From contig JBIQLO010000001.1 in the NCBI GenBank assembly GCA_044464175.1, positions 1 to 62,412 of the forward strand: a stretch of DNA of 62,412 bases. The letters run 5' to 3'. The notes beneath the pieces are model-generated. The model ran no database searches, had not been told where the DNA came from, and worked only from the letters and a program-made list of their open reading frames with translations. Source of the stretch: Planctomycetaceae bacterium (lineage in GTDB: Bacteria > Planctomycetota > Phycisphaerae > Tepidisphaerales > Tepidisphaeraceae). A program made the translations under genes and the position numbers. Positions 2 through 37,673 of the stretch are shown piece after piece (within the stretch, counting starts at the first letter, position 1; each line of letters begins with the position of its first letter).

Positions 2-871
2 GTCGGAGTGGGGCAGAGCATGTACGAGATCGCCCACTACACCAACGTCAACAATCTGGGGACGGCCATGCTGCTGGAGGCGTTGATCGACCATCCGGTG
101 GAGCGGCTGGTTGTGGCCTCGAGCATGAGCCTTTACGGGGAAGGCGCATACCGCGGGCCCGAGGGGCGCAACGCGACGCCGGTGGAACGCAACGTGGAGC
201 AACTCAAACGACGGGATTGGGAAGTGCGCGACGCCAAAGGGGCGGCGCTGACGCCGATGCCCACGCCGGAGACCAAGCCCCCTTCCCTGGCGTCGGTGTA
301 TGCCCTGTCGAAATATGACCAGGAGCGGATGTGCCTGATTGTGGGGCGGGCGTACGGCATCCCGACGACCGCGCTTCGGTTTTTTAACGTTTACGGGCCG
401 CGCCAGGCACTGTCCAATCCATATACGGGCGTGCTGGCCATTTTCGCCTCCCGTCTTCTCAACGGCCAGCCGCCGCTGATCTATGAAGATGGCGAGCAAA
501 AGCGTGACTTCGTGCATGTGACCGACATTGCCCGCGCCTGCCGGCTGGCGCTGGAATCGCCGCAAGCGCCGGGGCGGGCCTTCAACATCGGCTCGGGCCA
601 GGCATTCAGCGTGCGCGAGGTGGCGCAGCGCCTGGCGCGGACGCTGGACCGGCCGGAAATTGAGCCGCAAATCACCCATGAGTACCGCGTAGGCGACATC
701 CGGCACTGCTTTGCCGACATCCGCCTGGCGAGGCATCTGCTTGACTATGAACCTCAAACCGGCTTCGAGGAAGGCCTGGCGGATCTGGCGGCGTGGCTGG
801 AGCATCAGACGGCGGAGGATCACGTGCTTCAGGCGCGCCGGGAACTGGGAACCCGAGGATTGGCAATATGA
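2..871 (+). CDS. NAD-dependent epimerase/dehydratase (extended SDR), 5' end cut by window edge
   Basis: Frame is open to the window edge. Has the SDR YxxxK motif (YALSK) and an NVYGPRQ motif typical of sugar-nucleotide epimerases/dehydratases. Stop overlaps the next start (ATGA at 868-871). Confidence 0.8.
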   Translation, partial: VGVGQSMYEIAHYTNVNNLGTAMLLEALIDHPVERLVVASSMSLYGEGAYRGPEGRNATPVERNVEQLKRRDWEVRDAKGAALTPMPTPETKPPSLASVYALSKYDQERMCLIVGRAYGIPTTALRFFNVYGPRQALSNPYTGVLAIFASRLLNGQPPLIYEDGEQKRDFVHVTDIARACRLALESPQAPGRAFNIGSGQAFSVREVAQRLARTLDRPEIEPQITHEYRVGDIRHCFADIRLARHLLDYEPQTGFEEGLADLAAWLEHQTAEDHVLQARRELGTRGLAI

Positions 872-3000
872 AACATACTTCCACAGCGACAGACCGGACC
901 GCCCGTGATGGGGCCTGTCCCCCGGATCAGCAGCGGATCGGGCTGATGGAATGGTTCCGACCCGGCGAGCATCAGCGTGTCGAGGCGGTGCTGGCCGATC
1001 TTCAACGGCTGAACATCACGCACCTGCGGACGGGCATCTCGTGGGCCGAGTGGTACACCCCCGCCGGACAGGCCTGGTATGAGTGGCTCTTTCCGCGCCT
1101 GGCCCGGCAGGTGAACGTGCTGCCCTGCTTTGTCTACACACCGCCGAGTTGGTCGGTGGCCGCCAAGACCTCCGCCCCGCCGCATGACCTGCGCAGCTAC
1201 GGCGATTATCTGGACACGATGATCACCCGCTTCGGGGATTATTTCCAATGGGTGGAACTGTGGAATGAGCCCAACAACCAGCAGGAATGGGATTTCACGC
1301 TCGACCCGTACTGGCTGAAGTTCGCCGAAATGATCGGCGGCGCGGCCTACTGGGCGCGCCAGCGTGGCAAAAAGACGGTGCTGGGGGGGATGAGCCCGAT
1401 CGATCCCAACTGGCTGCGGATGATGTGCCAGCGAAATGTCATCGACCACATCGATGCGGTGGCCATTCACGCCTTTCCCAATCGCTGCCAGTTCGAATGG
1501 CAGGGCTGGGAAAAGCTCATTGGGCGCGTCCGGGATGTGCTGGACCAGCACAAGCTGAATCCGGAAATCTGGATCACGGAAACGGGTTACTCCACCTGGC
1601 GGCACGATGAACGGCGGCAGTTGACCAGCCTGGTCGATGCGCTGGATGCCCCGGCGGCCCGGGTTTACTGGTATGCCATGCAGGACCTGGACCCGGCGGT
1701 GGCGACTGTGGGCGGTTTTCACTATGACGAGCGGGATTATCATTTCGGCCTGAAGCGCTCGGACGGATCGGAAAAGCTGCTGTTTCGCCTGTGGGCCGAA
1801 GGAGGCCTCCAGACGGTGCGGCAGGCGTACTGGCTGGGGCGCGGGCTGCGAACGCAGGGATCGGACCGCCCGGCCCTCATCACCGGCGGCTGCGGCTTTA
1901 TCGGCATCAATGTGGCGCACCGGCTTTTGAGCCAGGAGCGTCCGGTGCTGCTGCTGGACAATCTCTCCCGGCCGGGAGCCGAGCGCAATCTCCAATGGCT
2001 CAAGCAGACGCACAAGGGGCGTCTGCGCATCGAGGCGGCGGACGTGCGGGATGCCCATGCGCTGCGGAACGCGGTTCACGGGGCGGCGCAGGTCTTTCAC
2101 CATGCAGCGCAGGTGGCGGTGACCACGAGCCTGGTCAACGCCATTCACGATTTTGAGGTGAACGCCCGCGGCACGGTCAACCTGCTTGAGGCGATCCGGG
2201 CGCAGGATGATCCGCCCCCCCTGCTGTTCACTTCCACCAACAAGGTGTATGGCGGGCTGCCGGATTTAAAACTGCGGGCCCGGCACGGACGCTATGAGCC
2301 GGAGGATGCCGCCACGCGCGAGTCCGGGGTGGATGAAGCGCGTCCGCTCGATTTCCACAGCCCCTACGGCTGCTCCAAGGGAGCGGCGGACCAATACGTT
2401 CTTGACTATGCCCGCACGTTTGGGCTGCCGGCGGTGGTCTTCCGCATGAGCTGCATCTACGGCCCGCACCAGTATGGGAATGAGGATCAGGGGTGGGTTG
2501 CGCATTTCCTGATTCGGGCGATGCAGAACCAGCCGATCACCATCTATGGGGATGGAATGCAGGTGCGCGACATTCTGTTCATCGACGACCTGGTGGATGC
2601 CTTCCTGGCCGCGCACGCGAACATGTCCACGCTCAGCGGGCAGGCCTTCAACATCGGCGGCGGCCCAGCCAACACGATCAGTCTTATCGAGTTGCTGGAT
2701 TTGATCGAGACATTCCAGGGACGGCGTCCGGCGCTCCGCCACAGCGCCTGGCGGCCGGGCGATCAGCGCTATTACGTCTCCAACACCAGCCGCTTCCAGA
2801 CCGCCACGGGCTGGAAGCCGCGGGTGGGCGTTCGCCAGGGCGTGCGGCGGCTGCAGGAATGGCTGGCGAAGCAGGAATTTTCCGAGTCGACGGCGGCGCG
2901 TCCGGTGAAACGGCCGCGGTCAAAGAACCCAGCGCATCGGCAGTCCCCTAAAATTGAGCAAAACACCCATGTCCTCCACCATGCTCGCCGCGGTCGTTGA
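868..3000 (+). CDS. Two-domain protein: N-terminal TIM-barrel glycosidase-like domain fused to a C-terminal SDR epimerase/dehydratase
   Basis: The N-terminal half has WVELWNEPNN and ITETGYS motifs, typical of clan GH-A acid/base and nucleophile regions. The C-terminal half has a Rossmann ITGGCGFIG motif and YGCSK (YxxxK). The ATG at 868 is coupled to the upstream stop; the ORF track start at 793 lies inside the upstream gene. Confidence 0.75.
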   Translation: MKHTSTATDRTARDGACPPDQQRIGLMEWFRPGEHQRVEAVLADLQRLNITHLRTGISWAEWYTPAGQAWYEWLFPRLARQVNVLPCFVYTPPSWSVAAKTSAPPHDLRSYGDYLDTMITRFGDYFQWVELWNEPNNQQEWDFTLDPYWLKFAEMIGGAAYWARQRGKKTVLGGMSPIDPNWLRMMCQRNVIDHIDAVAIHAFPNRCQFEWQGWEKLIGRVRDVLDQHKLNPEIWITETGYSTWRHDERRQLTSLVDALDAPAARVYWYAMQDLDPAVATVGGFHYDERDYHFGLKRSDGSEKLLFRLWAEGGLQTVRQAYWLGRGLRTQGSDRPALITGGCGFIGINVAHRLLSQERPVLLLDNLSRPGAERNLQWLKQTHKGRLRIEAADVRDAHALRNAVHGAAQVFHHAAQVAVTTSLVNAIHDFEVNARGTVNLLEAIRAQDDPPPLLFTSTNKVYGGLPDLKLRARHGRYEPEDAATRESGVDEARPLDFHSPYGCSKGAADQYVLDYARTFGLPAVVFRMSCIYGPHQYGNEDQGWVAHFLIRAMQNQPITIYGDGMQVRDILFIDDLVDAFLAAHANMSTLSGQAFNIGGGPANTISLIELLDLIETFQGRRPALRHSAWRPGDQRYYVSNTSRFQTATGWKPRVGVRQGVRRLQEWLAKQEFSESTAARPVKRPRSKNPAHRQSPKIEQNTHVLHHARRGR

Positions 3001-3985
3001 AGCGCCCCGGCGTCTTAACATTCATGAGGTTCCCATTCCCCGGCCCGCGGCCGATCAGGTGCGCGTCGCACTGGAAGGATGCGGCGTCTGCGCTTCCAAC
3101 GTGCCGCCGTGGGAGGGGCGGGAATGGTTTGAATACCCGATGGCGCCGGGGCAACTCGGGCATGAAGGATGGGGCCGGATTGACGCCGTGGGAAGCGGCG
3201 TAAGCCAGTTCAAACCGGGCGATCGCGTCGCCATGCTCTCGGAGCACGCCTACGCCGAGTATGACCTGGCGGCGCAGAACGCCGTGGTGAAATTGCCGCC
3301 GGCGCTGGACGGCCAGCCGTTCCCGGCCGAGCCGCTGGCGTGCGCGATCAATATCTTCCGCCGCAGCGGCATCCAGCCGGGTCAGACGGTGGCGATCGTC
3401 GGGATCGGGTTCCTGGGCGCGCTGCTGACGCGGCTGGCCAGCGACGCCGGGGCGCGGGTGATTGCAATCAATCGCCGCCCGGCCGCGCTGGAGATGGCCG
3501 GGCGGATGGGGGCGGCGCACGCCCTGGCGATGGATGGACAGACGCTGGAGCAGGTCCAGCAGTTGACCGGCGAGGAACTGTGCCCCGTGGTGATCGAAGC
3601 GGCCGGCACGCAGGCCACGTTGGATCTGGCGGCGGCGCTGACGGGGATTCGCGGCCGGCTGGTCATCGCAGGATATCACCAGGACGGGCTGCGGCAGTGC
3701 AACCTGCAGTTGTGGAACTGGCGGGGATTGGATGTGATCAACGCCCACGAGCGCGATCCGGAAGTTTACCGCCGGGGCATGGAACTGGCGGTGGGGATGC
3801 GCATGGAGGGCCAGCTTGACGCCACACCGCTGTACACGCACCGGTTTCCATTGGAGGGATTGGGGGAGGCATTGGATCTGGCCATGCAACGGCCGGAGGG
3901 ATTTGTCAAAGCACTGGTTGAAATCGCCCCGGGGCGGGGCGGGCGGGAAGGCTCCCGGGACAATCAGCCAGCCATCGAAGGGTAA
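2969..3985 (+). CDS. Zinc-binding alcohol dehydrogenase family (MDR) protein
   Basis: GHEGWG and CGVC zinc-ligand region and a GIGFLG Rossmann motif. ATG at 2969 is preferred over the TTG at 2954. Overlaps the upstream gene tail by 32 nt. Confidence 0.8.
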   Translation: MSSTMLAAVVEAPRRLNIHEVPIPRPAADQVRVALEGCGVCASNVPPWEGREWFEYPMAPGQLGHEGWGRIDAVGSGVSQFKPGDRVAMLSEHAYAEYDLAAQNAVVKLPPALDGQPFPAEPLACAINIFRRSGIQPGQTVAIVGIGFLGALLTRLASDAGARVIAINRRPAALEMAGRMGAAHALAMDGQTLEQVQQLTGEELCPVVIEAAGTQATLDLAAALTGIRGRLVIAGYHQDGLRQCNLQLWNWRGLDVINAHERDPEVYRRGMELAVGMRMEGQLDATPLYTHRFPLEGLGEALDLAMQRPEGFVKALVEIAPGRGGREGSRDNQPAIEG

Positions 3986-3990: not shown

Positions 3991-5181
3991 ATGAAGGTTT
4001 TGATGACAAGCGATGCGGTCGGCGGCGTGTGGACCTATGCCCTGGAACTGGCCGGGGCCCTGGCGGAGGATGGGGTGGAGGTCGTGCTGGCAACGATGGG
4101 GCCCCCTCCCAAGCAGCACCAGCGTCAGGAGGCCGCAGCGCTGGGGAATGTTCTGCTGGAATGCGGGGATTTCAAGCTGGAATGGATGGAGGATCCTTGG
4201 GAGGATGTCCGGCTGGCCGGACAATGGCTGCTGGAACTGGAGCAGGCGCATCACCCGAACCTGATTCATCTCAACGGATATGCGCATGGGACGCTGCCGT
4301 GGGCCGCGCCGGTGCTGATGGTGGCGCACTCCTGCGTGTTGTCCTGGTGGGAGGCGGTCAAGGGGGAGCCGATTCCGCCGCAATGGAGCCGGTATCGGCA
4401 TGTGGTGGCCAGCGGGCTGGCGTCGGCCGATTGTGTCGTCGCGCCGTCGGCCCAGATGCTGGAAATGGCCCAACGGCATTACGGGCCGCTGCCCCGGACG
4501 CTGGTGATTCATAACGCCCGGGATCCGGCCCGCTGTCCGGCAGGGAAAAAGGAGCCGCTGATTCTGACCGCCGGCCGCATGTGGGATGAGGCCAAGAACC
4601 TTGCTGCCCTGGCGGCCATCGCCCCGGAGCTCCATTGGCCGGTCTATGTGGCCGGGTCGTCGCAGGCGGATGCGAATTCCTCCGGACAGCTGCCCCAGAC
4701 GGGCGATGATGGCTCGCCGCGGGATGAACTCAGCGCCGGCCCGATCCGGTTTTTAGGCCCGCTTCCGGCCGCCGATTTGGCGGGATGGATGTCCCGGGCG
4801 GCGATCTACGCCCTGCCGGCGCGGTATGAGCCGTTTGGCCTCTCGATTTTGGAAGCAGCGCTGGCCGGCTGCGCGCTGGTGCTGGGAGACATTCCTTCGC
4901 TGCGTGAGATTTGGGGGGATGCGGCCCTGTTCATTGCGCCAGATGACCATGATGGCCTGCGGCAGGCGATCAACGCCCTGATTAACGACCCGGACCGGCA
5001 GGGAGCGCTGGCCGACCGCGCCCAGCAGCGGGCGATGGCGTATACGCCCCGGCGCATGGCCGATGCGTATCTGGCGCAGTACCGCCGCCTGCACGCCTTG
5101 ATGCACATCACCGATCCCATTCTTCCCGGCGTAAGCCCGTTTCTTGAGCAACCCCGAATCAGCGCGGCCGCCGTCAAATAG
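3991..5181 (+). CDS. Glycosyltransferase, GT-B fold (family 4-like)
   Basis: N-terminal SDAVGGVWTY and a C-terminal EPFGLSILEAALAGCALV (E-x7-E region), typical of GT4 enzymes. Confidence 0.8.
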   Translation: MKVLMTSDAVGGVWTYALELAGALAEDGVEVVLATMGPPPKQHQRQEAAALGNVLLECGDFKLEWMEDPWEDVRLAGQWLLELEQAHHPNLIHLNGYAHGTLPWAAPVLMVAHSCVLSWWEAVKGEPIPPQWSRYRHVVASGLASADCVVAPSAQMLEMAQRHYGPLPRTLVIHNARDPARCPAGKKEPLILTAGRMWDEAKNLAALAAIAPELHWPVYVAGSSQADANSSGQLPQTGDDGSPRDELSAGPIRFLGPLPAADLAGWMSRAAIYALPARYEPFGLSILEAALAGCALVLGDIPSLREIWGDAALFIAPDDHDGLRQAINALINDPDRQGALADRAQQRAMAYTPRRMADAYLAQYRRLHALMHITDPILPGVSPFLEQPRISAAAVK

Positions 5182-5190: not shown

Positions 5191-6357
5191 ATGCGCATTG
5201 TCCTGTTTTACCATTCCCTGATTTCCGACTGGAACCACGGCAATGCCCATTTCCTGCGCGGGATCGCCTCGGAACTGCTGCACCGGGGCCATGACGTGCG
5301 TCTATTCGAACCGCGCAACGGCTGGAGCGCGGTCAACCAGCGGGCCGAAGCCAACGGAACAGCCCTCAAGGGATTTCGGGCGGCATATCCGAATTTGAAA
5401 AGCACTTCCTATCACCTGCCCACGCTCGATCCGGACCTGGCGTTGCAGGAGGCGGACCTGGTGATCGTGCATGAGTGGAATGAGCCGGAACTGGTGCGGC
5501 GAATCGGGGAGCACCGCGCGACCCGAGGGGGGTATCGTCTGCTGTTTCACGACACCCACCATCGCGCGGTCACCGATCCATCGGCCATGGGCGGGTACGA
5601 CCTGCGGCACTATGACGGCGTGCTGGCCTTTGGGGGGGTGCTGCGGGAGATTTATCTCAGGAACGGCTGGACACGCCGGGCGTGGGTGTGGCACGAGGCG
5701 GCCGACACGCGGGTGTTTCGCCCCATTGTCGATCAGCCGACTGAAGGGGACCTGGTCTGGATCGGCAACTGGGGGGATGGGGAACGGTCGGAGGAATTGA
5801 TGCGGTTTCTGCTGCGCCCCATCGCAGCGCTGAAGCTCGGGGCGCGGATTCATGGCGTGCGCTATCCGGCCGAGGCGCGGGCGGCGCTGGCCGAGGCGGG
5901 GGTGGAATATGGCGGCTGGCTGCCCAACTACCGGGCCCCGGAGGTGTTTGCCCGGTTCAAGTTCACGGTGCATGTGCCGCGCCGACCGTATGCACGCGCG
6001 CTGCCGGGGATTCCCACTATCCGCGTCTTTGAGGCGCTCGCCTGCGGCACGCCGCTGGTCTGCGCGCCGTGGGAGGATGCCGAGCACCTGTTCACGCCGG
6101 GAGAGGATTACCTGGTGGCGCGGGATGGTGCGGAGATGAAGGCGCATATGCGCCTGTTGCTCAAGGACCGCGCCTTCAGCCGACAGCTGGCCGCGCATGG
6201 CCACCATACGATCCTGTCGCGTCATACCTGCGCGCATCGGGTGGATGAATTGATGAACGTGGTCGATGAGCTGCGACAGGCCAAACCGGCCCCCGGGCGA
6301 CGGGCCGGGAAGCGCGGGACTCCGTCGCGAGCCGCCGTCAACGGGAGATCAAGATGA
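5191..6357 (+). CDS. CgeB-family glycosyltransferase-like protein (module 1)
   Basis: Clear similarity to both halves of the next ORF: N-terminal IVLFYHSLISDWNHGNAHFLRG and C-terminal RVFEALACGTPLV...SRHTCAHR. ATG at 5191 is preferred over the TTG at 5185. Confidence 0.7.
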   Translation: MRIVLFYHSLISDWNHGNAHFLRGIASELLHRGHDVRLFEPRNGWSAVNQRAEANGTALKGFRAAYPNLKSTSYHLPTLDPDLALQEADLVIVHEWNEPELVRRIGEHRATRGGYRLLFHDTHHRAVTDPSAMGGYDLRHYDGVLAFGGVLREIYLRNGWTRRAWVWHEAADTRVFRPIVDQPTEGDLVWIGNWGDGERSEELMRFLLRPIAALKLGARIHGVRYPAEARAALAEAGVEYGGWLPNYRAPEVFARFKFTVHVPRRPYARALPGIPTIRVFEALACGTPLVCAPWEDAEHLFTPGEDYLVARDGAEMKAHMRLLLKDRAFSRQLAAHGHHTILSRHTCAHRVDELMNVVDELRQAKPAPGRRAGKRGTPSRAAVNGRSR

Positions 6358-8576
6358 ACCACAAACCCACCATTGCCTTCTTCGGCTCCAGCCTTGTCTC
6401 GGCCTACTGGAACGGGGCGGCCACTTACTACCGGGGCCTGGTTCGCGCGCTGCACGCCCGCGGCTATCGCGTCACGTTCTATGAGCCTGATGCCTACGAA
6501 CGGCAACAGCATCGGGACATGCCCGACCCGCCCTGGGCGCGGGTGGTGGTCTATTCAGCCCAGGGCACCGATGCGCTTGAGGCGTGCCTTCAGGAAGCCG
6601 CCGGTGCCGATCTGATCGTCAAGGCCAGTGGCGTGGGGGTTTTTGACGAGCTGCTTGAAGCGCGGGTTCCGGCCCTGCGGCGATCGGGCAATTTGGTGGC
6701 CTTCTGGGATGTGGATGCCCCGGCCACGCTGGAACGGCTTCGGCGGAACCCGCAGGACCCGTTTCATCCCCTGATTCCGCGGTATGACCTGATTTTCACA
6801 TATGGCGGCGGGCAGCCGGTGATCTCGGCGTACGAACAACTGGGGGCGCGGCGATGCGTGCCGATTTACAACGCCCTGGACCCGCAAACGCATCATCCGG
6901 TCCCGCCCGAGCCGCGCTTTGAGGCGGACCTGGGATTTCTGGGCAACCGCCTGCCGGACCGGGAGGCGCGGGTGGAGGCGTTCTTCATTCAGGCCGCGGC
7001 GATGCTGCCCCAGCGGCAGTTTCTGCTGGGGGGAAGCGGATGGGAGGACAAGCCGCTGCCGCCCAACATCCGCCGCCTGGGGCACGTGCCGACGGCCGAC
7101 CACAACGCCTTTAACTGCACGCCCAGGGCGGTGCTGAACATCAGCCGCCAAAGCATGGCCGATTTTGGCTTCTCGCCGGCCACGCGCGTCTTTGAGGCCG
7201 CCGGCGCGGCCGCCTGCCTCATTACCGATGATTTTCCGGGCATTGACGAATTCTTTGAACCGGAGACGGAGATTCTCGTGGCGCGGGATGGGGCGGATGT
7301 CGCACGGCAGCTTGAGGCGCTGACGCCTGCAAAAGCGACCGCCATCGGGCAGGCCGCGTGCCGGCGGGTTCTGGCTGATCATACCTATGCCCAGCGGGCG
7401 GTGCGATTTGAGGAGGCAATCGGGGCCGATCCCGGAAGTGGGATTTCGGGTGCCGGGATTCGGGATTCTCACTCCAATCCGAATCCCGGCACCCAAAACC
7501 CGAAATCCGAGTCCCTCAACATCGTCATTCTCGGCCTGTCCATCACCTCTTCATGGGGAAACGGACACGCTACGACCTATCGGGGCCTGGTGCGCGAGCT
7601 GAGCCGCCGGGGACATCAGGTTTTGTTTCTTGAGCGGGATAAGCCCTGGTATGCGAACAACCGCGATCTACCCCACCCCCCTTTTGGGCGCACGGCATTG
7701 TATAAGACGGTGGAGGACCTGAAGCGGCGATTTGCGGCCGAGGTCCGGCAGGCGGACCTGGTGATCGTCGGCTCGTATGTGCCCCAGGGCGTGGCCGTTG
7801 GGCAATGGGTGATCCAGACCGCGCGGGGGCTGCCGGCATTTTATGACATCGACACGCCGGTCACGCTGGCGAAGCTGGAGCGGGGCGATGAGGAATACCT
7901 GTCGCGGGCCCTGGTGCCGCGCTACCGGCTGTACCTCTCCTTCACCGGCGGGCCGACGCTGGAGCGGCTGGAAAGGGAATTCGGGTCCCCCGCCGCCCGG
8001 GCGCTCTATTGCGCGGTGGACCCGGAATCGTATTACCCGCAGGAGTCGGCCAAAATCTGGGAACTGGGGTACCTGGGCACCTACAGCCCCGACAGGCAGC
8101 CCGCGCTGGAGCAGTTTTTGATGGGAACGGCGCGCCGGCGTCCCGCCGGGCGGTTTGTGGTGGCGGGCTCGCAGTATCCCTCGGAGATCGACTGGCCGCC
8201 CAACGTACAGCGCATCGAGCATCTGAACCCATCGGAACACCGGGCCTTCTACAACCAGCAGGATTTGACGCTCAACCTGACTCGCTCGGACATGCGTCGG
8301 GCCGGCTACTGCCCCAGCGTGCGCCTGTTTGAGGCGGCCGCCTGCGGGGTGCCGATCCTGACTGACCGGTGGGAGGGGCTGGATGAGTTCTTCACACCCA
8401 ATGAGGAAATCTGCGTCATCGGCAACACGGAGGAGGCGTTGCGGCTGATGGAGCAGCGCCAATCCAAGGCGATGCGCCTGCTGGGACAGGCCGCGCGGCA
8501 TCGGGTGCTGTCGCGGCACACGGCGGCCCATCGGGCGGCCGAATTGGAAACCATCGTACATGAGCTGAATCAATGA
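6354..8576 (+). CDS. Tandem di-domain CgeB-family glycosyltransferase-like protein (modules 2 and 3 fused)
   Basis: Residues 1 to ~360 and ~385 to 740 are paralogous: FFGSSLVSAYWNGAATYYRGL versus ILGLSITSSWGNGHATTYRGL, and RVFEAAGAAACLITD versus RLFEAAACGVPILTD. ATGA overlaps at both ends (6354 and 8573). Confidence 0.7.
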   Translation: MNHKPTIAFFGSSLVSAYWNGAATYYRGLVRALHARGYRVTFYEPDAYERQQHRDMPDPPWARVVVYSAQGTDALEACLQEAAGADLIVKASGVGVFDELLEARVPALRRSGNLVAFWDVDAPATLERLRRNPQDPFHPLIPRYDLIFTYGGGQPVISAYEQLGARRCVPIYNALDPQTHHPVPPEPRFEADLGFLGNRLPDREARVEAFFIQAAAMLPQRQFLLGGSGWEDKPLPPNIRRLGHVPTADHNAFNCTPRAVLNISRQSMADFGFSPATRVFEAAGAAACLITDDFPGIDEFFEPETEILVARDGADVARQLEALTPAKATAIGQAACRRVLADHTYAQRAVRFEEAIGADPGSGISGAGIRDSHSNPNPGTQNPKSESLNIVILGLSITSSWGNGHATTYRGLVRELSRRGHQVLFLERDKPWYANNRDLPHPPFGRTALYKTVEDLKRRFAAEVRQADLVIVGSYVPQGVAVGQWVIQTARGLPAFYDIDTPVTLAKLERGDEEYLSRALVPRYRLYLSFTGGPTLERLEREFGSPAARALYCAVDPESYYPQESAKIWELGYLGTYSPDRQPALEQFLMGTARRRPAGRFVVAGSQYPSEIDWPPNVQRIEHLNPSEHRAFYNQQDLTLNLTRSDMRRAGYCPSVRLFEAAACGVPILTDRWEGLDEFFTPNEEICVIGNTEEALRLMEQRQSKAMRLLGQAARHRVLSRHTAAHRAAELETIVHELNQ
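7441..7508. repeat. CGGGATT-heptamer hairpin lying inside the CDS at the junction of the two CgeB modules
   Basis: Arms are GGATTTCGGGTGCCGGGATTCGGGATT and AATCCGAATCCCGGCACCCAAAACCCGAAATCC. They pair as 10 bp plus 13 bp blocks with one bulge. The element is translated as GISGAGIRDSHSNPNPGTQNPKS. Confidence 0.85.
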
Positions 8577-9361
8577 CCTCCACGGACACACAGGATCGGC
8601 AAGGGACGGCCGAGCAGGTCGAGGCCCTCAAGCCCTGGTTTCACAATCTCCACTTGCCGGACGGCACGCAGACGGTGCCCGATCACTGGCTGGGGGATTT
8701 TCCCACGTTCAAGTGGCGACAAATCGGCCACCACCTGCCGGAGGACCTGCGTGGATGGCGGTGCCTGGACATCGGCTGCAACGCGGGGTTTTATTCGTTT
8801 GAGCTGGCGAAGCGCGGCGCTGAGGTGCTGGGGATCGATGTTGATGAGCACTACCTGAAGCAGGCGCGCTGGGCGGCAAGACAGTATGGACTTGAGGATC
8901 GGATACGCTTTTGCCGCATGCAGGTGTATGACCTGGCGCGGCTGGGCGAGACGTTCGACCTGGTCTGGTTCATGGGCGTGCTCTATCACCTGCGCTATCC
9001 GATGCTCGGCCTGACCCTGGTCTGCCGGAAAGTGGGCCGGCTGATGGTCTTCCAGACCCTCACGATGCCGGGGAGCGAGGTATTTGAGGCGACCGACAAC
9101 CGACTCTGGGAGGAGCGGGAGCTGATGGGGGAGCCGGGCTGGCCGAAAATGGCCTTTCTCGAACACGGATTCGCCGGCGATCCCACAAACTGGTGGGCGC
9201 CCAACCACGCCGCGGTCGAGGCGATGCTCCGCAGCTGCGGGATGGAAGTGACCCACCGTCCGGGACATGAAATCTACCTCTGCCGGCCGACGGGCACGAT
9301 CGAGGAGGATCCGGAACTGGATTCGATCCTGCACCTGTCGTCGCCGGCGGATCCCGAATGA
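8573..9361 (+). CDS. Class I SAM-dependent methyltransferase
   Basis: SAM motif I CLDIGCNAGFYSFELAKRGA..VLGIDVD. From memory, the N-terminal WFHNLHLPDG region resembles the methyltransferase family named after Rta_06860 and DUF1698-type enzymes. Confidence 0.75.
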   Translation: MTSTDTQDRQGTAEQVEALKPWFHNLHLPDGTQTVPDHWLGDFPTFKWRQIGHHLPEDLRGWRCLDIGCNAGFYSFELAKRGAEVLGIDVDEHYLKQARWAARQYGLEDRIRFCRMQVYDLARLGETFDLVWFMGVLYHLRYPMLGLTLVCRKVGRLMVFQTLTMPGSEVFEATDNRLWEERELMGEPGWPKMAFLEHGFAGDPTNWWAPNHAAVEAMLRSCGMEVTHRPGHEIYLCRPTGTIEEDPELDSILHLSSPADPE

Positions 9362-10157: not shown

Positions 10158-10165
10158 ACATGGAC

Positions 10166-10194
10166 AATGGAAAATGGAAAATGAAAAATGGAAA
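10166..10194. repeat. Left arm of a perfect 29-bp inverted repeat (GGAAAAT heptamers)
   Basis: AATGGAAAATGGAAAATGAAAAATGGAAA is the exact reverse complement of 10583-10611. Confidence 0.95.
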
Positions 10195-10560
10195 TCAGGC
10201 GCGGCGGCGAGCGGTGACAATGGCTCGTCCGAGCATGCGGGCGATTTCCGAGGTTTCCCGGCGGACATCGGCGATGCGGGGTTCCTGAACCAACCTGGTT
10301 TCCACAATCAGCCGCAACCAATAAAGGGTTTCTCTCGCTTCCTTCAATGCGATGAGGTATTTGGCGACGAAATCAGCTTTGCTCTGAGCGGCCTGCCCTT
10401 CCTCGATATTTGCGCCGATGGAAGTTCCGGCGCGCAGCAACTGACTGGCGAGGGTGCGCGGCGTTCCAGGCTGGCGGTCCAAAAAGCGACAAAGATGAAC
10501 AATCCGGACCGCCAATCCGAAAGACCGGTCGGGAATGCTGGAAGATGTGGGAGTAATCAT
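10195..10560 (-). CDS. Four-helix-bundle protein (23S rRNA intervening-sequence protein family)
   Basis: 122 aa counted from the ATG at 10560. The motif LLRAGTSIGANIEEGQAAQSKADFVAKYLIALKEARETLYWLRL is characteristic of this family. The longer ORF-track start runs into the repeat arm. Confidence 0.85.
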   Translation of the reverse strand: MITPTSSSIPDRSFGLAVRIVHLCRFLDRQPGTPRTLASQLLRAGTSIGANIEEGQAAQSKADFVAKYLIALKEARETLYWLRLIVETRLVQEPRIADVRRETSEIARMLGRAIVTARRRA

Positions 10561-10582
10561 TCCTTCATCATGGCCCTTCCAT

Positions 10583-10611
10583 TTTCCATTTTTCATTTTC
10601 CATTTTCCATT
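10583..10611. repeat. Right arm of the perfect 29-bp inverted repeat
   Basis: TTTCCATTTTTCATTTTCCATTTTCCATT. Ends 4 nt before the pssA ATG. Confidence 0.95.
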
Positions 10612-10615
10612 TGAC

Positions 10616-11518
10616 ATGCCTCCCCTTCCCTCCAACTCCGTCCATCATCTGCATCGCCGCCAGCGGCGGCGGTGGCGCCGGCGGCGGGCGTATATCCGCT
10701 CGGTCTACTTTCTGCCCAGCCTGGCGACCCTGGGCAATGCGATCTGCGGGTTCGCGGCCATTTATGTGGCAGCATTGGATCCGTCGCTGCCCAGCGCCGA
10801 CTGGCTGACGGCGCGCTTCGCCGAGCACCGATTCACGGTGGCGGCCTATCTGATCTTCTTCGCCATGGTCTTTGACGCCCTGGACGGGCGGCTGGCGCGG
10901 TTTGCCCGGCATACGACCGATTTCGGCGGGCAGCTGGACAGCTTGGCGGATGTGCTGAGCTTTGGGGCGGCGCCGGCGTTTCTGGCGCTGCAGGCGTTTA
11001 AGGCGGGGTACCCGGATGTGCCGACGATCCTGTCGCGGCTGATCTGGGCGGTCGGGGCGCTGTTCATGAGCTGTGCGGCCATGCGCCTGGCGCGGTTCAA
11101 TGTCAGCAATGAGCATGGGGAACAGCACCACTTCAGCTTCCTGGGGCTGCCCAGCCCCGGGGCGGGGGCGGCCGTGGCATCGCTGGTGCTACTGGAACAA
11201 TATCTGCAGAACCACGGCCTGGCGTGGCTGTCGGCAATGTGCCTGTGGCTGCTGCCGCCGGTGGTGCTGGGAGCGGGGCTGCTGATGGTCAGCGCGGTGC
11301 GGTATCCGCACATGGTGAACCGGTATCTTCGGGGCAAGCGCTCAATCGCGCGGCTGGTGGCCGTGCTGGTGATCGCGCTGCTGTTCGTGGTGGCGCATCA
11401 GGTGACGCTGGCGATCGGCGCGCTGGGGTATGCGGCGTACGGGCCTGCATTGTGGCTGCTGGCGCGATGGCGCAAGAGCGGGGCGGGCGAGATGCCACAC
11501 ACCCAGCCGAATTCCTAG
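10616..11518 (+). CDS. pssA: CDP-diacylglycerol--serine O-phosphatidyltransferase
   Basis: CDP-alcohol phosphatidyltransferase motif DGRLAR...G...DSLAD. Multiple TM helices. ATG at 10616; the upstream ORF-track extension is repeat-encoded. Confidence 0.9.
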   Translation: MPPLPSNSVHHLHRRQRRRWRRRRAYIRSVYFLPSLATLGNAICGFAAIYVAALDPSLPSADWLTARFAEHRFTVAAYLIFFAMVFDALDGRLARFARHTTDFGGQLDSLADVLSFGAAPAFLALQAFKAGYPDVPTILSRLIWAVGALFMSCAAMRLARFNVSNEHGEQHHFSFLGLPSPGAGAAVASLVLLEQYLQNHGLAWLSAMCLWLLPPVVLGAGLLMVSAVRYPHMVNRYLRGKRSIARLVAVLVIALLFVVAHQVTLAIGALGYAAYGPALWLLARWRKSGAGEMPHTQPNS

Positions 11519-11659
11519 ATTGCAGATGAATCTCCAGGCGCCACGAGGCAGCGGACGGGCTGATTCCGGCAGTGGCATGCCGTGGGCTATGCGTCCTGGC
11601 ATGCCAGAACTCGCAACCCCCCTCTCCACCCTTGCACTGCGCCACCACGCCTAAACAAC

Positions 11660-11698
11660 AAAGGCATGATGGATTGCTCCATCATGCCTTTGGATTTT
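11660..11698. terminator. Bidirectional intrinsic terminator between pssA and fusA
   Basis: AAAGGCATGATGG / CCATCATGCCTTT 13-bp stem with a 6-nt loop. A-rich on the left and T-rich (GGATTTT) on the right. Confidence 0.6.
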
Positions 11699-11723
11699 AG
11701 GTTCCGGCCCGTTCAGGCACGGC

Positions 11724-14515: not shown

Positions 14516-14594
14516 CATGGCCGGCCCGCGGCGCGCCTCTTTCGGCCTCGTGGCGGACGCCTCAGAAGAAAGCCGGCCTCGGCCCATTACCAAA

Positions 14595-14675
14595 GTTGCC
14601 AGTTTCCAGTTCGTAGGGTGGGCTTTAGCCCACCACCGCTGACTGGTGGTAAAGCCCACCCTACGAACTGGCAAC
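14595..14675. repeat. Long composite hairpin in the rpsO-pnp leader (CCAGTT outer arms plus GTAGGGTGGGCTTTA core)
   Basis: AGTTCGTAGGGTGGGCTTTA pairs perfectly (20 bp) with TAAAGCCCACCCTACGAACT. An inner CCACCA/TGGTGG stem and outer GTTGCCAG/CTGGCAAC also pair. Confidence 0.9.
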
Positions 14676-14730
14676 TGACAACTCCCTGTCGGGCCGATTC
14701 CCCCCTTGAGGCTGCTGAAGGATATTGTCT

Positions 14731-17028
14731 ATGCAAGCCATTCGAGTCGAACGCCAGATCGGCGGTCGTACGTTGCCTATCGAGACCGGCAGCTTTGCCC
14801 GCCAGGCCGATGGGTCGGTGACGGTTCAGTATGGTGAATCGATTGTTTTCGGCGCGGTGGTCCGCGCCAAGCCGCGCGAGGGGATCGATTTCTTCCCGCT
14901 TCAGGTCGATTACCGCGAGCGGCGGGCGGCGGCCGGGAAGTTCCCCGGCGGGTTCATGAAGCGCGAGGGGCGCCCCACCACCAAGGAAATCCTGACGGCC
15001 CGGCTGATTGACCGGCCGCTGCGTCCCTTGTTCCCCAAGGGGTTCATGGACGAGGTGCAGATTCACCTGAACGTGCTGACCTTTGACGGGCAGAACGACA
15101 CGGACATCTTTGCCGGCATCGCGGCCAGCGCGTCGGTGGCGATCAGCGATATTCCGTTTCTCACGCCCACGGCCCACGTGCGCGTGGGGCGGATCGATGG
15201 GGAATTCGTCCTGAACCCCACCGTTGAGCAGTTGGAATACAGCGAGTTTGACCTGGTGGTGGCCGGGACGAAGCATTTTGTGAACATGATCGAGATCGGG
15301 GCCCGCGAGGTGCCCGAGGACACGGTGGCCGACGCAATTGAGTTCGGGCACAAGGCGGTCATCGAGATCGTCGGCATGATTGAGGAGTTGCAGGGCAAGG
15401 CCGGCAAGGAGAAGGTGGGCGACATCAAGCATCCCGACGCCGGGTTTGTGGATGCGATCCGGGCGAAGGTGGCCGACCAGATCCGCGAGGTGAAGGGGAA
15501 GCCGGGCAAGCAGGACCGGGCCGAGGCCGTGGCGAACATCCTGGATAGCCTGCTGGAAGAGATGGCTCCGCCGGTGACGGATCCGAATGCGCCCTACCTG
15601 GCGATCGCCGCGCAGAAGGAAAAGGCGAAGCAGGTTCGAAGCATCTTCGCCGAAATCGAGGAAGAGGCGACGCGGCAGGCGATTCTGGACGGCGTCCGTC
15701 CCGACGGGCGCGGCTTCAACGACATTCGCCCGATCAGCTGCCAGGTGGGTCTGCTGCCCCGCGTGCACGGGTCGGCCGTCTTTACCCGCGGCGAGACGCA
15801 GGCGATGGTCACCGCCACCCTGGGCACCAGCAGCGATGAGCAGCTGGTGGACGGGCTGACGGAGGAATACAGCCAGAAGTTCATGCTGCACTACTACTTC
15901 CCCAGCTATAGCGTGGGCGAGGTGCGGCCGATTCGCGGGCCCGGCCGGCGCGAGATCGGGCACGGGGCGCTGGCCGAGCGCAGCCTGATCGCAGTGCTGC
16001 CGAGCGTGGAGGAATTCCCTTACACCGTGCGGCTGATCAGCGACATCCTGGAGTCCAACGGCAGCTCGTCGATGGCCAGCTCCTGCGGCGGCTGTCTGGC
16101 ACTCATGGATGCGGGCGTGCCGATCAAGAAGATGGTGGCGGGAATTTCCGTGGGCTTGGTGAAGGAGGGGGACAAACAGGTCCTGCTGACCGACATCCTG
16201 GGCGAAGAAGATCACTTCGGCGACATGGACTTCAAGGTGTGCGGCACGCGGGATGGGATCACGGCGATCCAGCTCGACATCAAGATCGAGGGGCTGGATT
16301 ACGGGATCATCCGCAAGACGCTCCACCGGGCCAAGGAGGCGCGACTGGTGATTCTGGACAAGATGAGCCAGACGCTCGACGCGCCGCGGCCTCAAATCAG
16401 CGAGTACGCCCCGCGTCTGCTGACGATCAAGATTGACCCGGAGAAGATCGGCAAGCTCATCGGCCCGGGCGGCAAGACGATCAAGAAGATCCAGGAGGAG
16501 ACCGGCGCCAACATCGACATCGAAGACGACGGCACGGTCTACATCAGCGCGGTGGACGGCGCGGCGGCCGAGAAGTGCCGCGACATCGTCGAGGCGATGA
16601 CGGCGGAGGTGAAGGTCGGGCGCATCTACACCGGCAAGGTGGTGAGCATCAAGGATTTCGGTGCGTTTGTCGAAATCGCCCCGGACACCGACGGCCTGTG
16701 CCACGTGTCGGAATTATCCAGCCACTATGTGGAGCAGGTGACCAATTTCGTGCACATGGGCGACGAAATCCCGGTGAAGGTGATCCTGATCGACGATCAG
16801 GGGCGCATCAAGCTCAGCCGCAAGGAAGCCCTGAAGGAACTGGGCCAGGAAGACCCGGAACCGGTGCAGAGCGAGCGGCCAGAGGGCGACGATGACGCCG
16901 GCAACCGGAGCGAGCGGCATGATCGGGGCGGCGACCGCGGTGGACGCGGCGGCGATCGGGGCGGTCGCGGCGGACGGGGTGGACGCGGCGGGCGCGGTGG
17001 CGACCGCGGTGGACGCCGGGACGATTAA
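14731..17028 (+). CDS. pnp: Polyribonucleotide nucleotidyltransferase (PNPase) with a C-terminal Arg/Gly-rich tail
   Basis: Two RNase PH domains, a KH domain ([15 protein letters not shown]), an S1 domain ([15 protein letters not shown]), then the tail [34 protein letters not shown] at 14731. Confidence 0.95.
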
Positions 17029-25661: not shown

Positions 25662-25690
25662 GTTACCAGTTATCAGTTGCCAGTTGCCAG
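25662..25690. repeat. CCAGTTG tandem heptamers spanning the nuoN/nuoM junction
   Basis: GTTACCAGTTATCAGTTGCCAGTTGCCAG. Covers the 18-nt spacer and the last nuoM codons (..LATGN stop). Confidence 0.8.
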
Positions 25691-27319
25691 AGTGATCGCG
25701 GTCGAAGGATGCACCTCCAAGGCCGCCACCCGAATCCCGGAACCCGAATCCCGGCTGTCGACCACCGACTGCTGAATCGGGCGCAGGATATCCTGCACCG
25801 GCTTGAGGATCGGCGAGAGGACGCCGTTGGGCAGCACGCCCAGCAGCACTACCGCCAACGCCAGCGGCACCAGAATCGCCACTTCGCGCCCGTTCAGGTC
25901 GGGTTTGGGCCCGGCGTGGTGGGCATGGCCCGGCTCGCCGTGATCGGCGGTCGGGTGCTTCAGCGGGCCGAAGATCACCCGGGCGACCATGTGCAGCATG
26001 TAGAGCGCGCCCAGGATCACGCCCAGCGCCCCCAGCACGCCAAAGCCGATGCCCAGGTGGGGCGAGGTGAACGCCCCCAGGAGCGTCAGAAATTCGCTGA
26101 CAAACCCGTTCAATCCCGGCAGGCCGATGCTGGAGAGGGCAAACAGTACGAAGAAGAAGGCCAGCTTGGGCATGACCCGCGCCAGGCCGGAAAGCTCATG
26201 GATGTCGCGGGTGTGGTAGCGCTCGTAGATCATCCCGATCACAAGGAACATCGCCCCGGTGCTCAGGCCGTGGTTGATCATGTAGAGGACCGATCCCTGC
26301 TGTCCGATTTCGTTCAGGGCGAACAGCCCCAGCACGCAAAAGCCCAGGTGGGAAACCGAGGAGTAGGCGACCAGCTTCTTGATGTCCTGTTGCACCCACG
26401 CCACCAGGGCAGCGTAGATGATCCCGATGACGCACACGATGCCGATCCACTTGACCAGCAGCGGGAAGGAGACGCCCGTGGCGGTGATCAGGCCGATGGG
26501 AATCGCCAGGCGGAACAGCCCGTAGGTCCCCAGCTTCAGCAACACGCCGGCCAGGATCACGCTGCCGGCGGTCGGGGCCTCGGTGTGCGCCAGTGGCAGC
26601 CAGGTATGGACCGGGAACAGCGGCACCTTCACGGCGAAACCGGACAGGAAGCCGAGAATCACCCACCAGCGCTCGCTGTGGGTGAGGGCAGGGATGCCGG
26701 GGAGGCCGTGCTGCGCCCCGGCCACGATGGTGGCGATGTCGAAGGTGTTGTACTTCAGGCCCAGGTAGATCGCCGTGGCCAGCGTCAGCATGGAGCCGGT
26801 AAAGGTGAAAATGAAGAACTTGATCGCCGCGTAATTCCGCTCCGGACCGCCCCAGACGCCGATCAGGAAGAACATCGGGATCAGGGTCAGCTCGAAGAAG
26901 ATGTAGAACATCAGCAGGTCGGCGGCCACGAAAACGCCGAGCATGGTGAACGCCATGCCCAGCATCCAGGCGTAATACTCCTGCTGGCGCTGCTGGATGT
27001 AGCTGAAGCTGCCGGCCACGGAGATCGGCATCAGCACGACCGTGAGCATCATCAGCCACATGCTCACCGCGTCGGCCGACAGATGGAAGCTGAATCCGAT
27101 GCCCGGCACCTGCAGCGAGGAGAGGCTCCAGTCAAGGGTCGCCCCGGGCGTGAGCCAGGGGAACTGAAGCACCATCGCCAGCCCGACCAGCGCCGTCAGC
27201 AGACTGACAAACAGGGACCAGGTCTGGGCGGCCCTGGTCTGGCGGATGAACGCCGCCACGATCGTCCCCACCAGAGGGACGGCCAGAAGAAGCGGAAGCC
27301 AGATGCTGTGTACGATCAT
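25673..27319 (-). CDS. nuoM: NADH-quinone oxidoreductase subunit M, with a repeat-encoded C-terminal tail
   Basis: Antiporter-like subunit. The final ~30 aa (VVDSRDSGSGIRVAALEVHPSTAITLATGN) are encoded by heptamer repeats. Confidence 0.9.
   Translation of the reverse strand: MIVHSIWLPLLLAVPLVGTIVAAFIRQTRAAQTWSLFVSLLTALVGLAMVLQFPWLTPGATLDWSLSSLQVPGIGFSFHLSADAVSMWLMMLTVVLMPISVAGSFSYIQQRQQEYYAWMLGMAFTMLGVFVAADLLMFYIFFELTLIPMFFLIGVWGGPERNYAAIKFFIFTFTGSMLTLATAIYLGLKYNTFDIATIVAGAQHGLPGIPALTHSERWWVILGFLSGFAVKVPLFPVHTWLPLAHTEAPTAGSVILAGVLLKLGTYGLFRLAIPIGLITATGVSFPLLVKWIGIVCVIGIIYAALVAWVQQDIKKLVAYSSVSHLGFCVLGLFALNEIGQQGSVLYMINHGLSTGAMFLVIGMIYERYHTRDIHELSGLARVMPKLAFFFVLFALSSIGLPGLNGFVSEFLTLLGAFTSPHLGIGFGVLGALGVILGALYMLHMVARVIFGPLKHPTADHGEPGHAHHAGPKPDLNGREVAILVPLALAVVLLGVLPNGVLSPILKPVQDILRPIQQSVVDSRDSGSGIRVAALEVHPSTAITLATGN
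25729..25754. repeat. CCCGAAT/CCCGGAA tandem heptamers inside the nuoM 3' end
   Basis: CCCGAATCCCGGAACCCGAATCCCGG. Same unit (complement of CGGGATT) as 7441-7508 and 40818-40836. Confidence 0.8.
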
Positions 27320-29622: not shown

Positions 29623-29625
29623 GCG

Positions 29626-29700
29626 TCGTTGTCCGTTGTCCGTTGTCCGCTGCCCGGTGTCCGATTTGCTTCCTCGGACCACGGTCCACAGACAACGATC
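29626..29700. repeat. CGTTGTC/GTCCGTG-family hairpin in the nuoL/nuoK spacer
   Basis: Three tandem CGTTGTC units at 29627-29647 are opposed by TCGGACCACGGTCCACAGACAACGA. The outer 8 bp TCGTTGTC/GACAACGA pair perfectly. Confidence 0.8.
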
Positions 29701-30019: not shown

Positions 30020-30027
30020 TCGTCCAT

Positions 30028-30098
30028 CGTGGTTCGTGGTCCGTGGTCCGTGGTCCGAAAGAGTGAATCGGACCACGGACAACGGACGACGGACCACG
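30028..30098. repeat. GTCCGTG-heptamer hairpin in the nuoK/nuoJ spacer
   Basis: CGTGGTTCGTGGTCCGTGGTCCGTGGTCCGA, then a 9-nt loop, then TCGGACCACGGACAACGGACGACGGACCACG. The arms are 31 nt with about 4 mismatches. Confidence 0.9.
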
Positions 30099-30101
30099 TC
30101 C

Positions 30102-34914: not shown

Positions 34915-34968
34915 GTAGGGTGGGCTTTAGCCCACCAGGAACGGCCGGTGGGCTAAAGCCCACCCTAC
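34915..34968. repeat. Perfect 22-bp hairpin GTAGGGTGGGCTTTAGCCCACC in the fliF/fliG spacer
   Basis: Arms at 34915-34936 and 34947-34968 are exact reverse complements. Same core as 14611-14668. Confidence 0.95.
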
Positions 34969-36740: not shown

Positions 36741-36808
36741 ATCGTTGTCCGTGGTCCGTTGTCCGAGCAGAAACCACGGACCACGGACAACGGACAACGG
36801 ACAACGAT
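36741..36808. repeat. CGTTGTC/GTCCGTG-family hairpin in the fliE/fliF spacer
   Basis: ATCGTTGTCCGTGGTCCGTTGTCCG is opposed by CGGACCACGGACAACGGACAACGGACAACGAT. The register can slip by whole heptamers. Confidence 0.85.
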
Positions 36809-37113
36809 CAAATCGGCATATTCTTAATCTCCTCGTACGCATCCATCAGCTTGGAGCGGATCGCCAGGAGGGTCTTGAAGGCCAGGTCCGACTTCTCCAC
36901 CGCCGTCATCACCCCGGTCACGTTCTCCGTCTTGCCCGCCACCAGGTCCTCCACGGCCGCCGAGGCATCCTGCTGCATCTTCGACACCTCGTCGATGCTC
37001 TTTTTCAGCGCATCGGCAAAGCTCGCCCCCCCGCCGCCGGCCGCCCCCCCCGCCGCCGGCATCGACCCGCCGATCTTCCCGATCCCGAGATTGTTGGTGG
37101 AAATTGGATTCAT
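36808..37113 (-). CDS. fliE: Flagellar hook-basal body complex protein FliE
   Basis: 101 aa from the ATG at 37113. The FADALKKSIDEVSKMQQDA...AVEKSDLAFKTLLAIRSKLMDAYEEI sequence is typical of FliE. Confidence 0.85.
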   Translation of the reverse strand: MNPISTNNLGIGKIGGSMPAAGGAAGGGGASFADALKKSIDEVSKMQQDASAAVEDLVAGKTENVTGVMTAVEKSDLAFKTLLAIRSKLMDAYEEIKNMPI

Positions 37114-37115
37114 GT

Positions 37116-37190
37116 TCGTTGTCCGGGGTCCATCGGCCGTGGTCCATGATGATCCCTCTGGGACCATGGACAACGGATCACGGACCACGA
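37116..37190. repeat. Degenerate GTCCGTG-family hairpin in the flgC/fliE spacer
   Basis: TCGTTGTCCGGGGTCCATCGGCCGTGGTCC versus GGACCATGGACAACGGATCACGGACCACGA. About 22 of 30 positions are complementary. Confidence 0.65.
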
Positions 37191-37588: not shown

Positions 37589-37608
37589 CAGACCTCCATG
37601 TCTTTCAT

Positions 37609-37670: not shown

Positions 37671-37673
37671 GGT

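Follow-up and report, generated by a model that had tools for sequence, protein, structure and literature searches.

In the 62,412-nt stretch of planctomycete DNA analysed here (the window), a tightly packed operon contains an uninterrupted open reading frame (ORF) of 740 aa in which two CgeB-like glycosyltransferase modules are joined by a linker that is coded by a hairpin of inverted heptamer repeats. A stand-alone paralog immediately upstream is referred to as module 1 and the two halves of the 740-aa protein as modules 2 and 3. The 740-aa ORF overlaps the upstream paralog by an ATGA at 6354-6357 and the downstream methyltransferase gene at 8573-8576, and its G+C content at third codon positions (GC3) of 0.785 is usual for genes of the window. 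The coordinates of these and other features are given in Table 1.

Table 1. Genes, protein modules and heptamer-array elements of the window
Feature	Positions	Strand	Remarks
SDR epimerase/dehydratase, extra N-terminal domain	793-3000		First-listed gene of the operon
Zn-dependent dehydrogenase (Zn-ADH)	2954-3985		Same operon as the 740-aa ORF
GT4 glycosyltransferase	3991-5181		Same operon as the 740-aa ORF
Stand-alone CgeB-like paralog (module 1), PF13524	5185-6357	+	390 aa; begins MSMRIVLFYHSLISDWNHG
Fused ORF with two CgeB-like (PF13524) GT-B modules	6354-8576	+	740 aa, uninterrupted
Module 2	6354-7418	+	Residues 1-355; ends ...HTYAQRAVRFEEAIGA
Linker hairpin, degenerate CGGGATT heptamer array	7441-7508	+	5' arm 7441-7467, inverted copy as 3' arm 7476-7508; residues ~363-385
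Module 3	7509-8573	+	Residues 386-740; begins LNIVILGLSITSSWGNGH; no start codon of its own
TIGR04290 methyltransferase	8573-9361		Operon gene after the 740-aa ORF
Inverted GGAAAAT arrays, ~35 nt	10159-10195 and 10576-10618		Bracket the PF05635/TIGR02436 gene
PF05635/TIGR02436 four-helix-bundle gene (23S rRNA intervening-sequence protein, Avd-like)	10198-10635	-	
AGTTGCC heptamer arms round GTAG-tagged REP-like palindrome	14594-14683		Boundary 14481/14725
CGGGATT-family array, second copy, TTCGGGTTCCGGGATTCGGG	25729-25755	-	Translated (..SRDSGSGIRV..) in NuoM-like ORF 25673-27319
GGACCAC/GGACAAC hairpin	29625-29700	-	Fills nuoK/nuoL gap
(GGACCAC/GGACAAC)n hairpin	30026-30099	-	Fills nuoJ stop to nuoK start; reference example
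GGACCAC/GGACAAC hairpin	36741-36812	-	Downstream of fliE
GGACCAC/GGACAAC hairpin	37110-37190	-	Fills flgC/fliE gap
GGACCAC/GGACAAC hairpin	37608-37672	-	Fills flgB/flgC gap
20-mer core of CGGGATT family, third site	40818-40837	-	Intergenic, upstream of gene 40893-41993

The 740-aa protein was matched by PF13524 over two stretches (E = 3e-78; 261 bits against a gathering cut-off of 25), and the module 1 protein scored 134 bits against the same family. Residues 1-355 and 386-740 are 34% identical to each other (E = 2e-63), which identifies them as paralogous modules, and module 1 is 25-26% identical to each half. A preliminary description, made from the DNA letters alone, had likewise divided the ORF into two paralogous modules, and the gene start that it gave for module 1, MSMRIVLFYHSLISDWNHG, was confirmed by the ORF reading. 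An AlphaFold2 model built on 60 orthologs had a mean predicted local distance difference test score (pLDDT) of 92, with both modules above 90. The score fell below 50 only at residues 360-383 (codons 7431-7502, + strand), corresponding to a predicted disordered linker. Each module was modelled with a GT-B fold of two Rossmann-like halves, and the top matches in the PDB were the GT4/GT-B enzymes MshA, BshA and sucrose-phosphate synthase (E = 1e-13 to 1e-10; template modelling scores, normalised to the target, of 0.6-0.74). The protein is thus predicted to be a pair of CgeB-like/Glyco_trans_1_2 GT-B glycosyltransferases.

The RNA of the linker hairpin was predicted to fold into 7, 16 and 3 base pairs with an 8-nt loop and a 7-nt bulge. 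Its minimum free energy was -47.6 kcal/mol, compared with -31.4 +/- 3.5 kcal/mol for 200 dinucleotide shuffles (z = -4.6), none of which was as good. In the DNA, arms at 7433-7463 and 7479-7509 are 84% complementary. Among the inverted repeats listed for the window the hairpin ranks third in length, and it is the sole strong one (at least 84% complementary) within a well-supported coding region. CGGGATT itself is present at 2.1 exact copies, inside a degenerate four-unit array. The fold and the complementarity of the arms bear out the earlier statement that the junction is coded by a CGGGATT-family hairpin.

In the frame used, the hairpin encodes GSGISGAGIRDSHSNPNPGTQNPKSES, the peptide previously proposed, and the linker residues comprise only Gly, Ser, Asn, Pro, Thr and charged residues plus two Ile. 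This composition, together with the low pLDDT of residues 360-383, agrees with the proposal that the repeat is free of stops in this frame and codes for a flexible segment. The linker is 29 aa long, and its GC3 of 0.61 is lower than that of the gene's other codons (0.79; binomial p = 0.02). By comparison, the module 2 tail plus the N-terminal extension of module 3 in split Phycisphaerae amounts to 25-37 aa. As had been reported, the ORF continues across the junction without an in-frame stop after module 2, and module 3 has no ATG, GTG or TTG at its start. Within 7300-7750, such codons occur in frame only at 7401, 7590, 7623, 7698 and 7710, leaving none between 7402 and 7589 and making the GTG at 7590 the first start-like codon past the start of module 3. 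With neither a stop nor a start in this interval, module 3 can be made only within the long protein.

A reading of the hairpin as a terminator was dropped. The scan for intrinsic terminators found none at 7441-7520, where the GC-rich stem is followed by GAGTCCCTCAAC and lacks a T-run. There was no Rfam match anywhere in the window, the linker hairpin included, and the hairpin carries no GTAG or CGTC tag.

Period-7 tandem arrays are abundant in the window and occur as inverted pairs. The GGACCAC/GGACAAC family gave 16 matches where none were expected. With the true start codons near heptamer hairpins placed by protein homology, all seven other clear heptamer hairpins were found at same-strand gene boundaries, namely nuoJ/K, nuoK/L, flgB/flgC, flgC/fliE, after fliE, psd/pssA and 14481/14725. 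By direct reading, the heptamer units are free of stops in all six frames, so that ORFs can run through the arrays freely. Mechanical ORF calls accordingly over-extend nuoK, nuoL, fliE and flgC N-terminally through such hairpins. For annotation, this means that ORFs in such genomes (here nuoK, nuoL, fliE, flgC and pssA) are routinely over-extended into stop-free arrays.

The CGGGATT family itself is dispersed. Its 20-mer core, TTCGGGTKCCGGGATTCGGG, was found with two mismatches or fewer at four sites in 62 kb, compared with none expected: both arms of the linker hairpin, 25729-25748 and the third site at 40818-40837. The second copy is translated. The C-terminal ~30 residues of the NuoM-like ORF (..VDSRDSGSGIRVAALEVHPSTAITLATGN, followed by the stop) are coded by CGGGATT-family and GGTAACT arrays (25662-25760, - strand), and the stop codon falls inside the GGTAACT array. 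ORFs of this genome therefore do run into boundary arrays. The third site is part of a C/A-rich, low-complexity intergenic stretch at 40650-40840, which also contains arrays of CTTCGTCG (three copies) and AACCAAACA (three copies) and lies just upstream of a TTGACA-containing region and of the gene at 40893-41993.

One of the boundary elements carries a gene. The element at 10159-10618 occupies the gap from the psd stop (10157) to what is probably the start of pssA (an ATG at ~10617), and each of its GGAAAAT arrays ends in CATG. It has the stem-plus-ORF architecture of rRNA intervening sequences, but is located in an mRNA operon and is antisense to that operon. No description of heptamer-array hairpins, or of a link between them and PF05635 genes, was found in the available literature. 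In a relative with 87% identical EF-G (L167), nested heptamer hairpins were found at 14940-15125 in the gap between an S41 peptidase gene and tsaD, with GAATGAT inside GGCACGGA-type arms. Judged from these sequences, the hairpin class is probably a feature of the lineage, with unit sequences that change quickly.

Other palindromes were also observed in the window. A GTAG-tagged REP-like palindrome, GTAGGGTGGGCTTTAGCCCACC, has 22-nt perfect arms at 34915-34968 and recurs at 14612-14665, nested in heptamer arms; this genome therefore has classical REPs alongside heptamer hairpins, and combinations of the two. Between the convergent genes pssA and fusA, at 11650-11701, is a hairpin with 24-nt arms (88% complementary) and a 4-nt loop, which has no relation to the heptamer class and resembles a bidirectional terminator.

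To place the fusion among its relatives, split and fused arrangements of modules 2 and 3 were compared. A search with the full protein returned at least 120 fused orthologs of 709-971 aa, 56-66% identical and including named Myxococcales and Kofleriaceae, although a full-length query puts fused proteins first by construction. Their linkers are hypervariable in sequence and in length (~8 to >100 aa), and many of these orthologs keep the Met of the old start (..RAMSIVFLG..). These proteins at first suggested an ancient fusion; this was rejected, as the split form is both the majority and the arrangement of the nearest relatives. Modules 2 and 3 are adjacent but separate in ~60 of 61 informative loci of species-representative genomes and in 30 of 30 loci on metagenome contigs, usually translationally coupled by an ATGA-type stop/start overlap. 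By comparison of EF-G, the window falls in Phycisphaerae, near Tepidisphaeraceae and Fontivita, and all four Phycisphaerae reference loci (L006, L008, L009 and L080) are split with ATGA-type overlaps. These counts agree with the earlier suggestion that the modules were once adjacent, separate genes. On the contigs of the two relatives with the best-matching EF-G (87-88% identical) the operon is not beside fusA, so that they were uninformative on the junction.

Module 3 alone was also used as query, and all retrieved proteins were re-ranked by blastp. The top 35 non-self matches were all stand-alone proteins of 353-406 aa (67-71% identical), and the best fused orthologs ranked 37th and 43rd (67.6%). 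The other fused orthologs with a hairpin in the linker were 64% identical to module 3, and L081 and L082 are no nearer to the window than many split forms. Because the best matches to module 3 are stand-alone and fused forms rank only 37th and 43rd, the fusion in the window is likely to be derived and specific to its lineage. It is also likely that modules 2 and 3 were fused several times across lineages. In a neighbour-joining tree the window grouped, weakly (bootstrap 42), with the split Phycisphaerales loci L008, L009 and L087. Counting of fusion events from this tree was dropped, its support being too weak.

The junction was then examined in other loci, with linker DNA obtained for eight fused orthologs with long linkers. 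In the linker of L081 (GCA_030447685.1, 11061-11201), a 59-nt loop is flanked by 41-nt arms of 100% complementarity (-103.5 kcal/mol, z = -14.5). Such perfect arms suggest a very recent inverted duplication or templated homogenisation. In L082 (11061-11233), octamer arrays (AACGCCTG/AACACCTC) form the linker hairpin (z = -4.0), and in L083 the hairpin is marginal (z = -2.4). The linker hairpins of L081 and L082 are the strongest inverted repeats in 22 kb and span the whole linker, and in both loci, as in the window, the base of the stem matches both domain boundaries. Homology to the window hairpin was absent for L081 and marginal for L082 (z = 1.9) and L083 (z = 2.1, p ~0.05), and no dispersed copies of the three hairpins were found within their own loci. 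That L081 and L082 have unrelated hairpins of their own points to a process tied to the junction. Hairpins recur at the module 2/3 junction and are placed far too well for chance. They are neither universal nor needed for fusion; a hairpin in every long linker was ruled out by the fused L165, L166, L169 and L170.

Among split loci, L010 has a CTCAAAA heptamer hairpin in the spacer between modules 2 and 3, and in L009 and L036 the stop/start overlap lies within the loop of a hairpin. A junction hairpin conserved across split loci was not found; over 70 such loci, structure at the junction did not exceed that of the flanking coding sequence (median rank 0.52), with nine loci at a rank of 0.05 or less in a test that is biased towards low ranks. 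The spacer hairpin anticipated for split orthologs in the preliminary description was present in L010 and absent from L171, L008 and L087, the nearest split relatives.

The surrounding operon (SDR epimerase, Zn-ADH or B12-radical-SAM, GT4, three CgeB-like modules and TIGR04290 methyltransferase) is kept across at least 10 phyla (loci L001-L172). In some orthologs the methyltransferase is fused on as well (P0092, 963 aa; P0099, 971 aa). The extra N-terminal region of the SDR epimerase/dehydratase, ~350 aa long, gave no Pfam match but includes a ..WVELWNEPN.. motif that recalls glycoside hydrolases. SDR orthologs of similar length are present in L083 (723 aa) and L171 (718 aa).

Based on these observations, the linker hairpin would be one copy of a set of genome-specific palindromes, each made of a short tandem array of 7-nt units followed by an inverted array, that normally occupy the stop-to-start gaps within operons. 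The boundary between modules 2 and 3 may have gained such a hairpin while it was still intercistronic, or the hairpin may have arisen in the fusing event itself. Once stop and start were lost, ribosomes could have read through the stop-free hairpin from module 2 into module 3, making it the whole linker. The protein would gain a disordered tether of ~25 residues, flexible and neutral, that holds the two paralogs to a 1:1 ratio, and the RNA a strong stem that the ribosome has to unwind. We infer that the ORF is translated as a single chain and that the hairpin has no separate function.

To this reading, in which the hairpin stood at the gene boundary before the fusion or was formed there in the course of it, rather than being inserted later, we give about an even chance. 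It is supported by the strict location of the class at boundaries and by the translated array in the NuoM-like tail. L010 would represent the proposed intermediate, and the overlaps in the hairpin loops of L009 and L036 point the same way. Further support comes from the fit between the 29-aa linker and the 25-37 aa of tail plus leader, from the lower GC3 of the linker, and from the fact that without the hairpin a linker of only ~6 aa would remain.

Several observations weigh against capture at the boundary. No relic of a stop, Shine-Dalgarno sequence or start is visible beside the hairpin. The long linkers of the fused L165, L166, L169 and L170 contain no hairpin, the nearest split relatives lack one at the junction, and the 70 split loci show no excess of structure there. 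In more than 100 fused orthologs the linker, whether short or long, contains neither repeat nor hairpin; fusion of modules 2 and 3 therefore needs no hairpin, and stop loss or a frameshift alone is enough. Such unrelated, non-repeat linkers had been named beforehand as evidence against the proposal, and they are indeed numerous, yet the nearest relatives of the window are split. The difference in identity between the best split (70-71%) and the best fused (67.6%) forms is narrow, and the neighbour-joining tree is poorly resolved (bootstrap 42 or less). None of the relatives, ~70% identical at most, fixes the order of hairpin and fusion, and the more distant ones lack the hairpin but have split genes. 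The earlier proposal of a fusion mediated by a dispersed repeat therefore stands in part: the split relatives, the boundary class and L010 favour it, and the hairpin-free fusions and hairpin-free nearest split relatives do not.

The main alternative is an order of events in which stop loss or a frameshift fused the modules first and a palindromic repeat was later inserted in frame into a permissive linker; the outcome would look no different. The copy would have survived because few other positions in coding DNA are as permissive, as with Rickettsia palindromic elements or REPs within ORFs. In-frame palindromic repeats inside ORFs are well documented, and insertion of such repeats into permissive coding sites is known (PMC3184786, PMC3733652). 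The linker, hypervariable among the 120 fused orthologs and predicted to be disordered, tolerates insertions, the hairpin belongs to a dispersed family, and the nearest split relatives lack junction hairpins. We nevertheless regard this order as rather unlikely. Removal of the hairpin would leave about six linker residues (DPGS..ES), below any fused ortholog seen (9 or more), and the paired segment, at 68 nt, is not a multiple of three. The closest relatives by sequence are split, not fused, and all other members of the class are at true gene boundaries. In L081 and L082, moreover, 22 kb contain no strong inverted repeat besides the linker hairpin, whereas copies landing at random would more often be expected in intergenic space, a ~10-fold larger target. 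An assembly or sequencing artefact, with an indel error in the repeat-rich hairpin merging two real genes, is very improbable. Heptamer repeats and strong hairpins invite indel errors, but here a stop as well as a start would have to be lost through the error, with no in-frame start in 7402-7589. Read in the other frames, the sequence has no stop nearby or meets one at 7602, well within the conserved module 3. Hairpin linkers in frame are also present in independent assemblies of other samples (L081, L082, L083 and L084), and more than 120 fused orthologs exist.

It is also improbable that the hairpin was kept for a function in the mRNA, slowing the ribosome to let module 2 fold ahead of the emergence of module 3, or serving as a processing site that adjusts the amounts of the two halves (e.g. 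for RNase III, as at the stems around four-helix-bundle genes in 23S rRNA intervening sequences), with the peptide as a by-product. Unrelated strong hairpins do occupy the same linker in the window, L081, L082 and, marginally, L083, with the stem base coinciding each time with both domain boundaries. The placing of the stop/start overlap in the hairpin loop in the split L009 and L036, and the bracketing of the PF05635 gene by the same class of stem, would also suit a role in RNA. However, half of the long linkers examined are hairpin-free, as are the short-linker fusions and most split junctions, and the hairpins, which cannot be aligned, offer no sequence or covariation evidence and match no Rfam family. 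Cleavage within the ORF would be costly, yielding a non-stop 5' fragment and a start-less 3' fragment. A broader proposal, of similarly low probability, holds that the heptamer hairpins are a distinct, actively generated class of boundary element in Phycisphaerae, perhaps in the wider Planctomycetota-Verrucomicrobiota-Chlamydiota (PVC) group, that repeatedly welds cistrons together. Such elements may be kin to the stems bracketing PF05635 (Avd/IVS-protein-like) genes and may arise by a templated or mobile mechanism. They may weld cistrons since they are stop-free and since gain or loss of a 7-nt unit shifts the frame by one. The recurrent linker hairpins may then reflect that mechanism or a retained RNA function, such as RNase III processing or a co-translational pause, giving fused and separate products.

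The linker hairpin was compared with known systems. Small palindromic repeats known in frame inside ORFs include RPE, REP, BOX/RUP/SPRITE and BRE (PMC3184786), and residues encoded by REPs have been described within proteins (PMC3733652). As in those cases, a dispersed and normally intergenic hairpin repeat is found in frame, the extra residues lie in a surface or unstructured segment with the folded domains undisturbed, and copies extend the 3' ends of ORFs, here in the NuoM-like tail. The linker hairpin combines a stable stem, membership of a family with several copies in the 62-kb window and an in-frame position with both domains intact; the wider heptamer-hairpin class adds seven further loci. 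It differs in consisting of inverted tandem heptamers with a unit that varies by locus, rather than a conserved consensus of 100-150 bp, and in forming a whole fusion linker at what is a gene boundary in relatives, rather than an insertion within one domain. With neither a GTAG/CGTC tag nor an Rfam match, it was assigned to none of the named families considered (RPE, GTAG/CGTC REP, BOX and BRE).

The stable, multi-copy stem-loops between cistrons, sometimes overlapping ORF ends, resemble proteobacterial REP/BIME elements, including GTAG-tagged REPs (PMC3733652). Unlike these, the heptamer hairpins have arms made of tandem arrays and lack both a GTAG/CGTC tag and a family consensus, and the loop of one of them contains a gene. 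In having 7-nt tandem units that are intergenic near gene starts and occasionally overlap ORF ends, they also resemble STRR-type cyanobacterial repeats and the TAACTGA repeats of Beggiatoaceae, which are direct repeats with one inverted case reported (PMC4679880). Here, however, each array is paired with an inverted array and is stop-free in six frames, whereas TAACTGA in the forward direction carries stops. In Borg proteins, too, fast-evolving tandem repeats are translated into new, intrinsically disordered segments (PMC9879509), but those repeats are direct, arise inside ORFs and, where they fall in genes, have units divisible by three; those of the linker are 7-nt, inverted and at a former gene boundary.

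Intervening sequences in 23S rRNA consist of an inverted-repeat stem that encloses a PF05635 ORF and is excised by RNase III. The element at 10159-10618 is like them, with stems that are heptamer arrays of the linker-hairpin kind, but it lies in the psd/pssA mRNA operon rather than in rRNA. The linker hairpin itself, with an 8-nt loop and no cargo, does not have this stem-plus-ORF form. In the coexistence of split and fused forms, and in the many fused orthologs that keep the start Met, the locus resembles fusions of coupled paralogs by stop loss or frameshift. In the window, L081 and L082, however, the linker is a strong palindrome and not an old tail plus leader.

Translated palindromic repeats in genes are known, and variation between split and fused forms of adjacent paralogs is ordinary. 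Less ordinary is the element itself, built of inverted tandem heptamers with a unit that varies between loci, for which no description was found in the available literature. Less ordinary, too, is that the repeat makes up the linker from end to end where the nearest relatives have a gene boundary, and that two or three further fusions, apparently independent ones, carry strong but unrelated hairpins in the same place. The intercistronic inverted-heptamer hairpins of this planctomycete are apparently an undescribed class, one member of which carries a four-helix-bundle gene. Since split, intermediate and fused states can all be observed, the locus indicates how noncoding repeat DNA at a boundary within an operon can be turned into a disordered linker in a multidomain enzyme, which bears on the origin of gene fusions and of new linkers.

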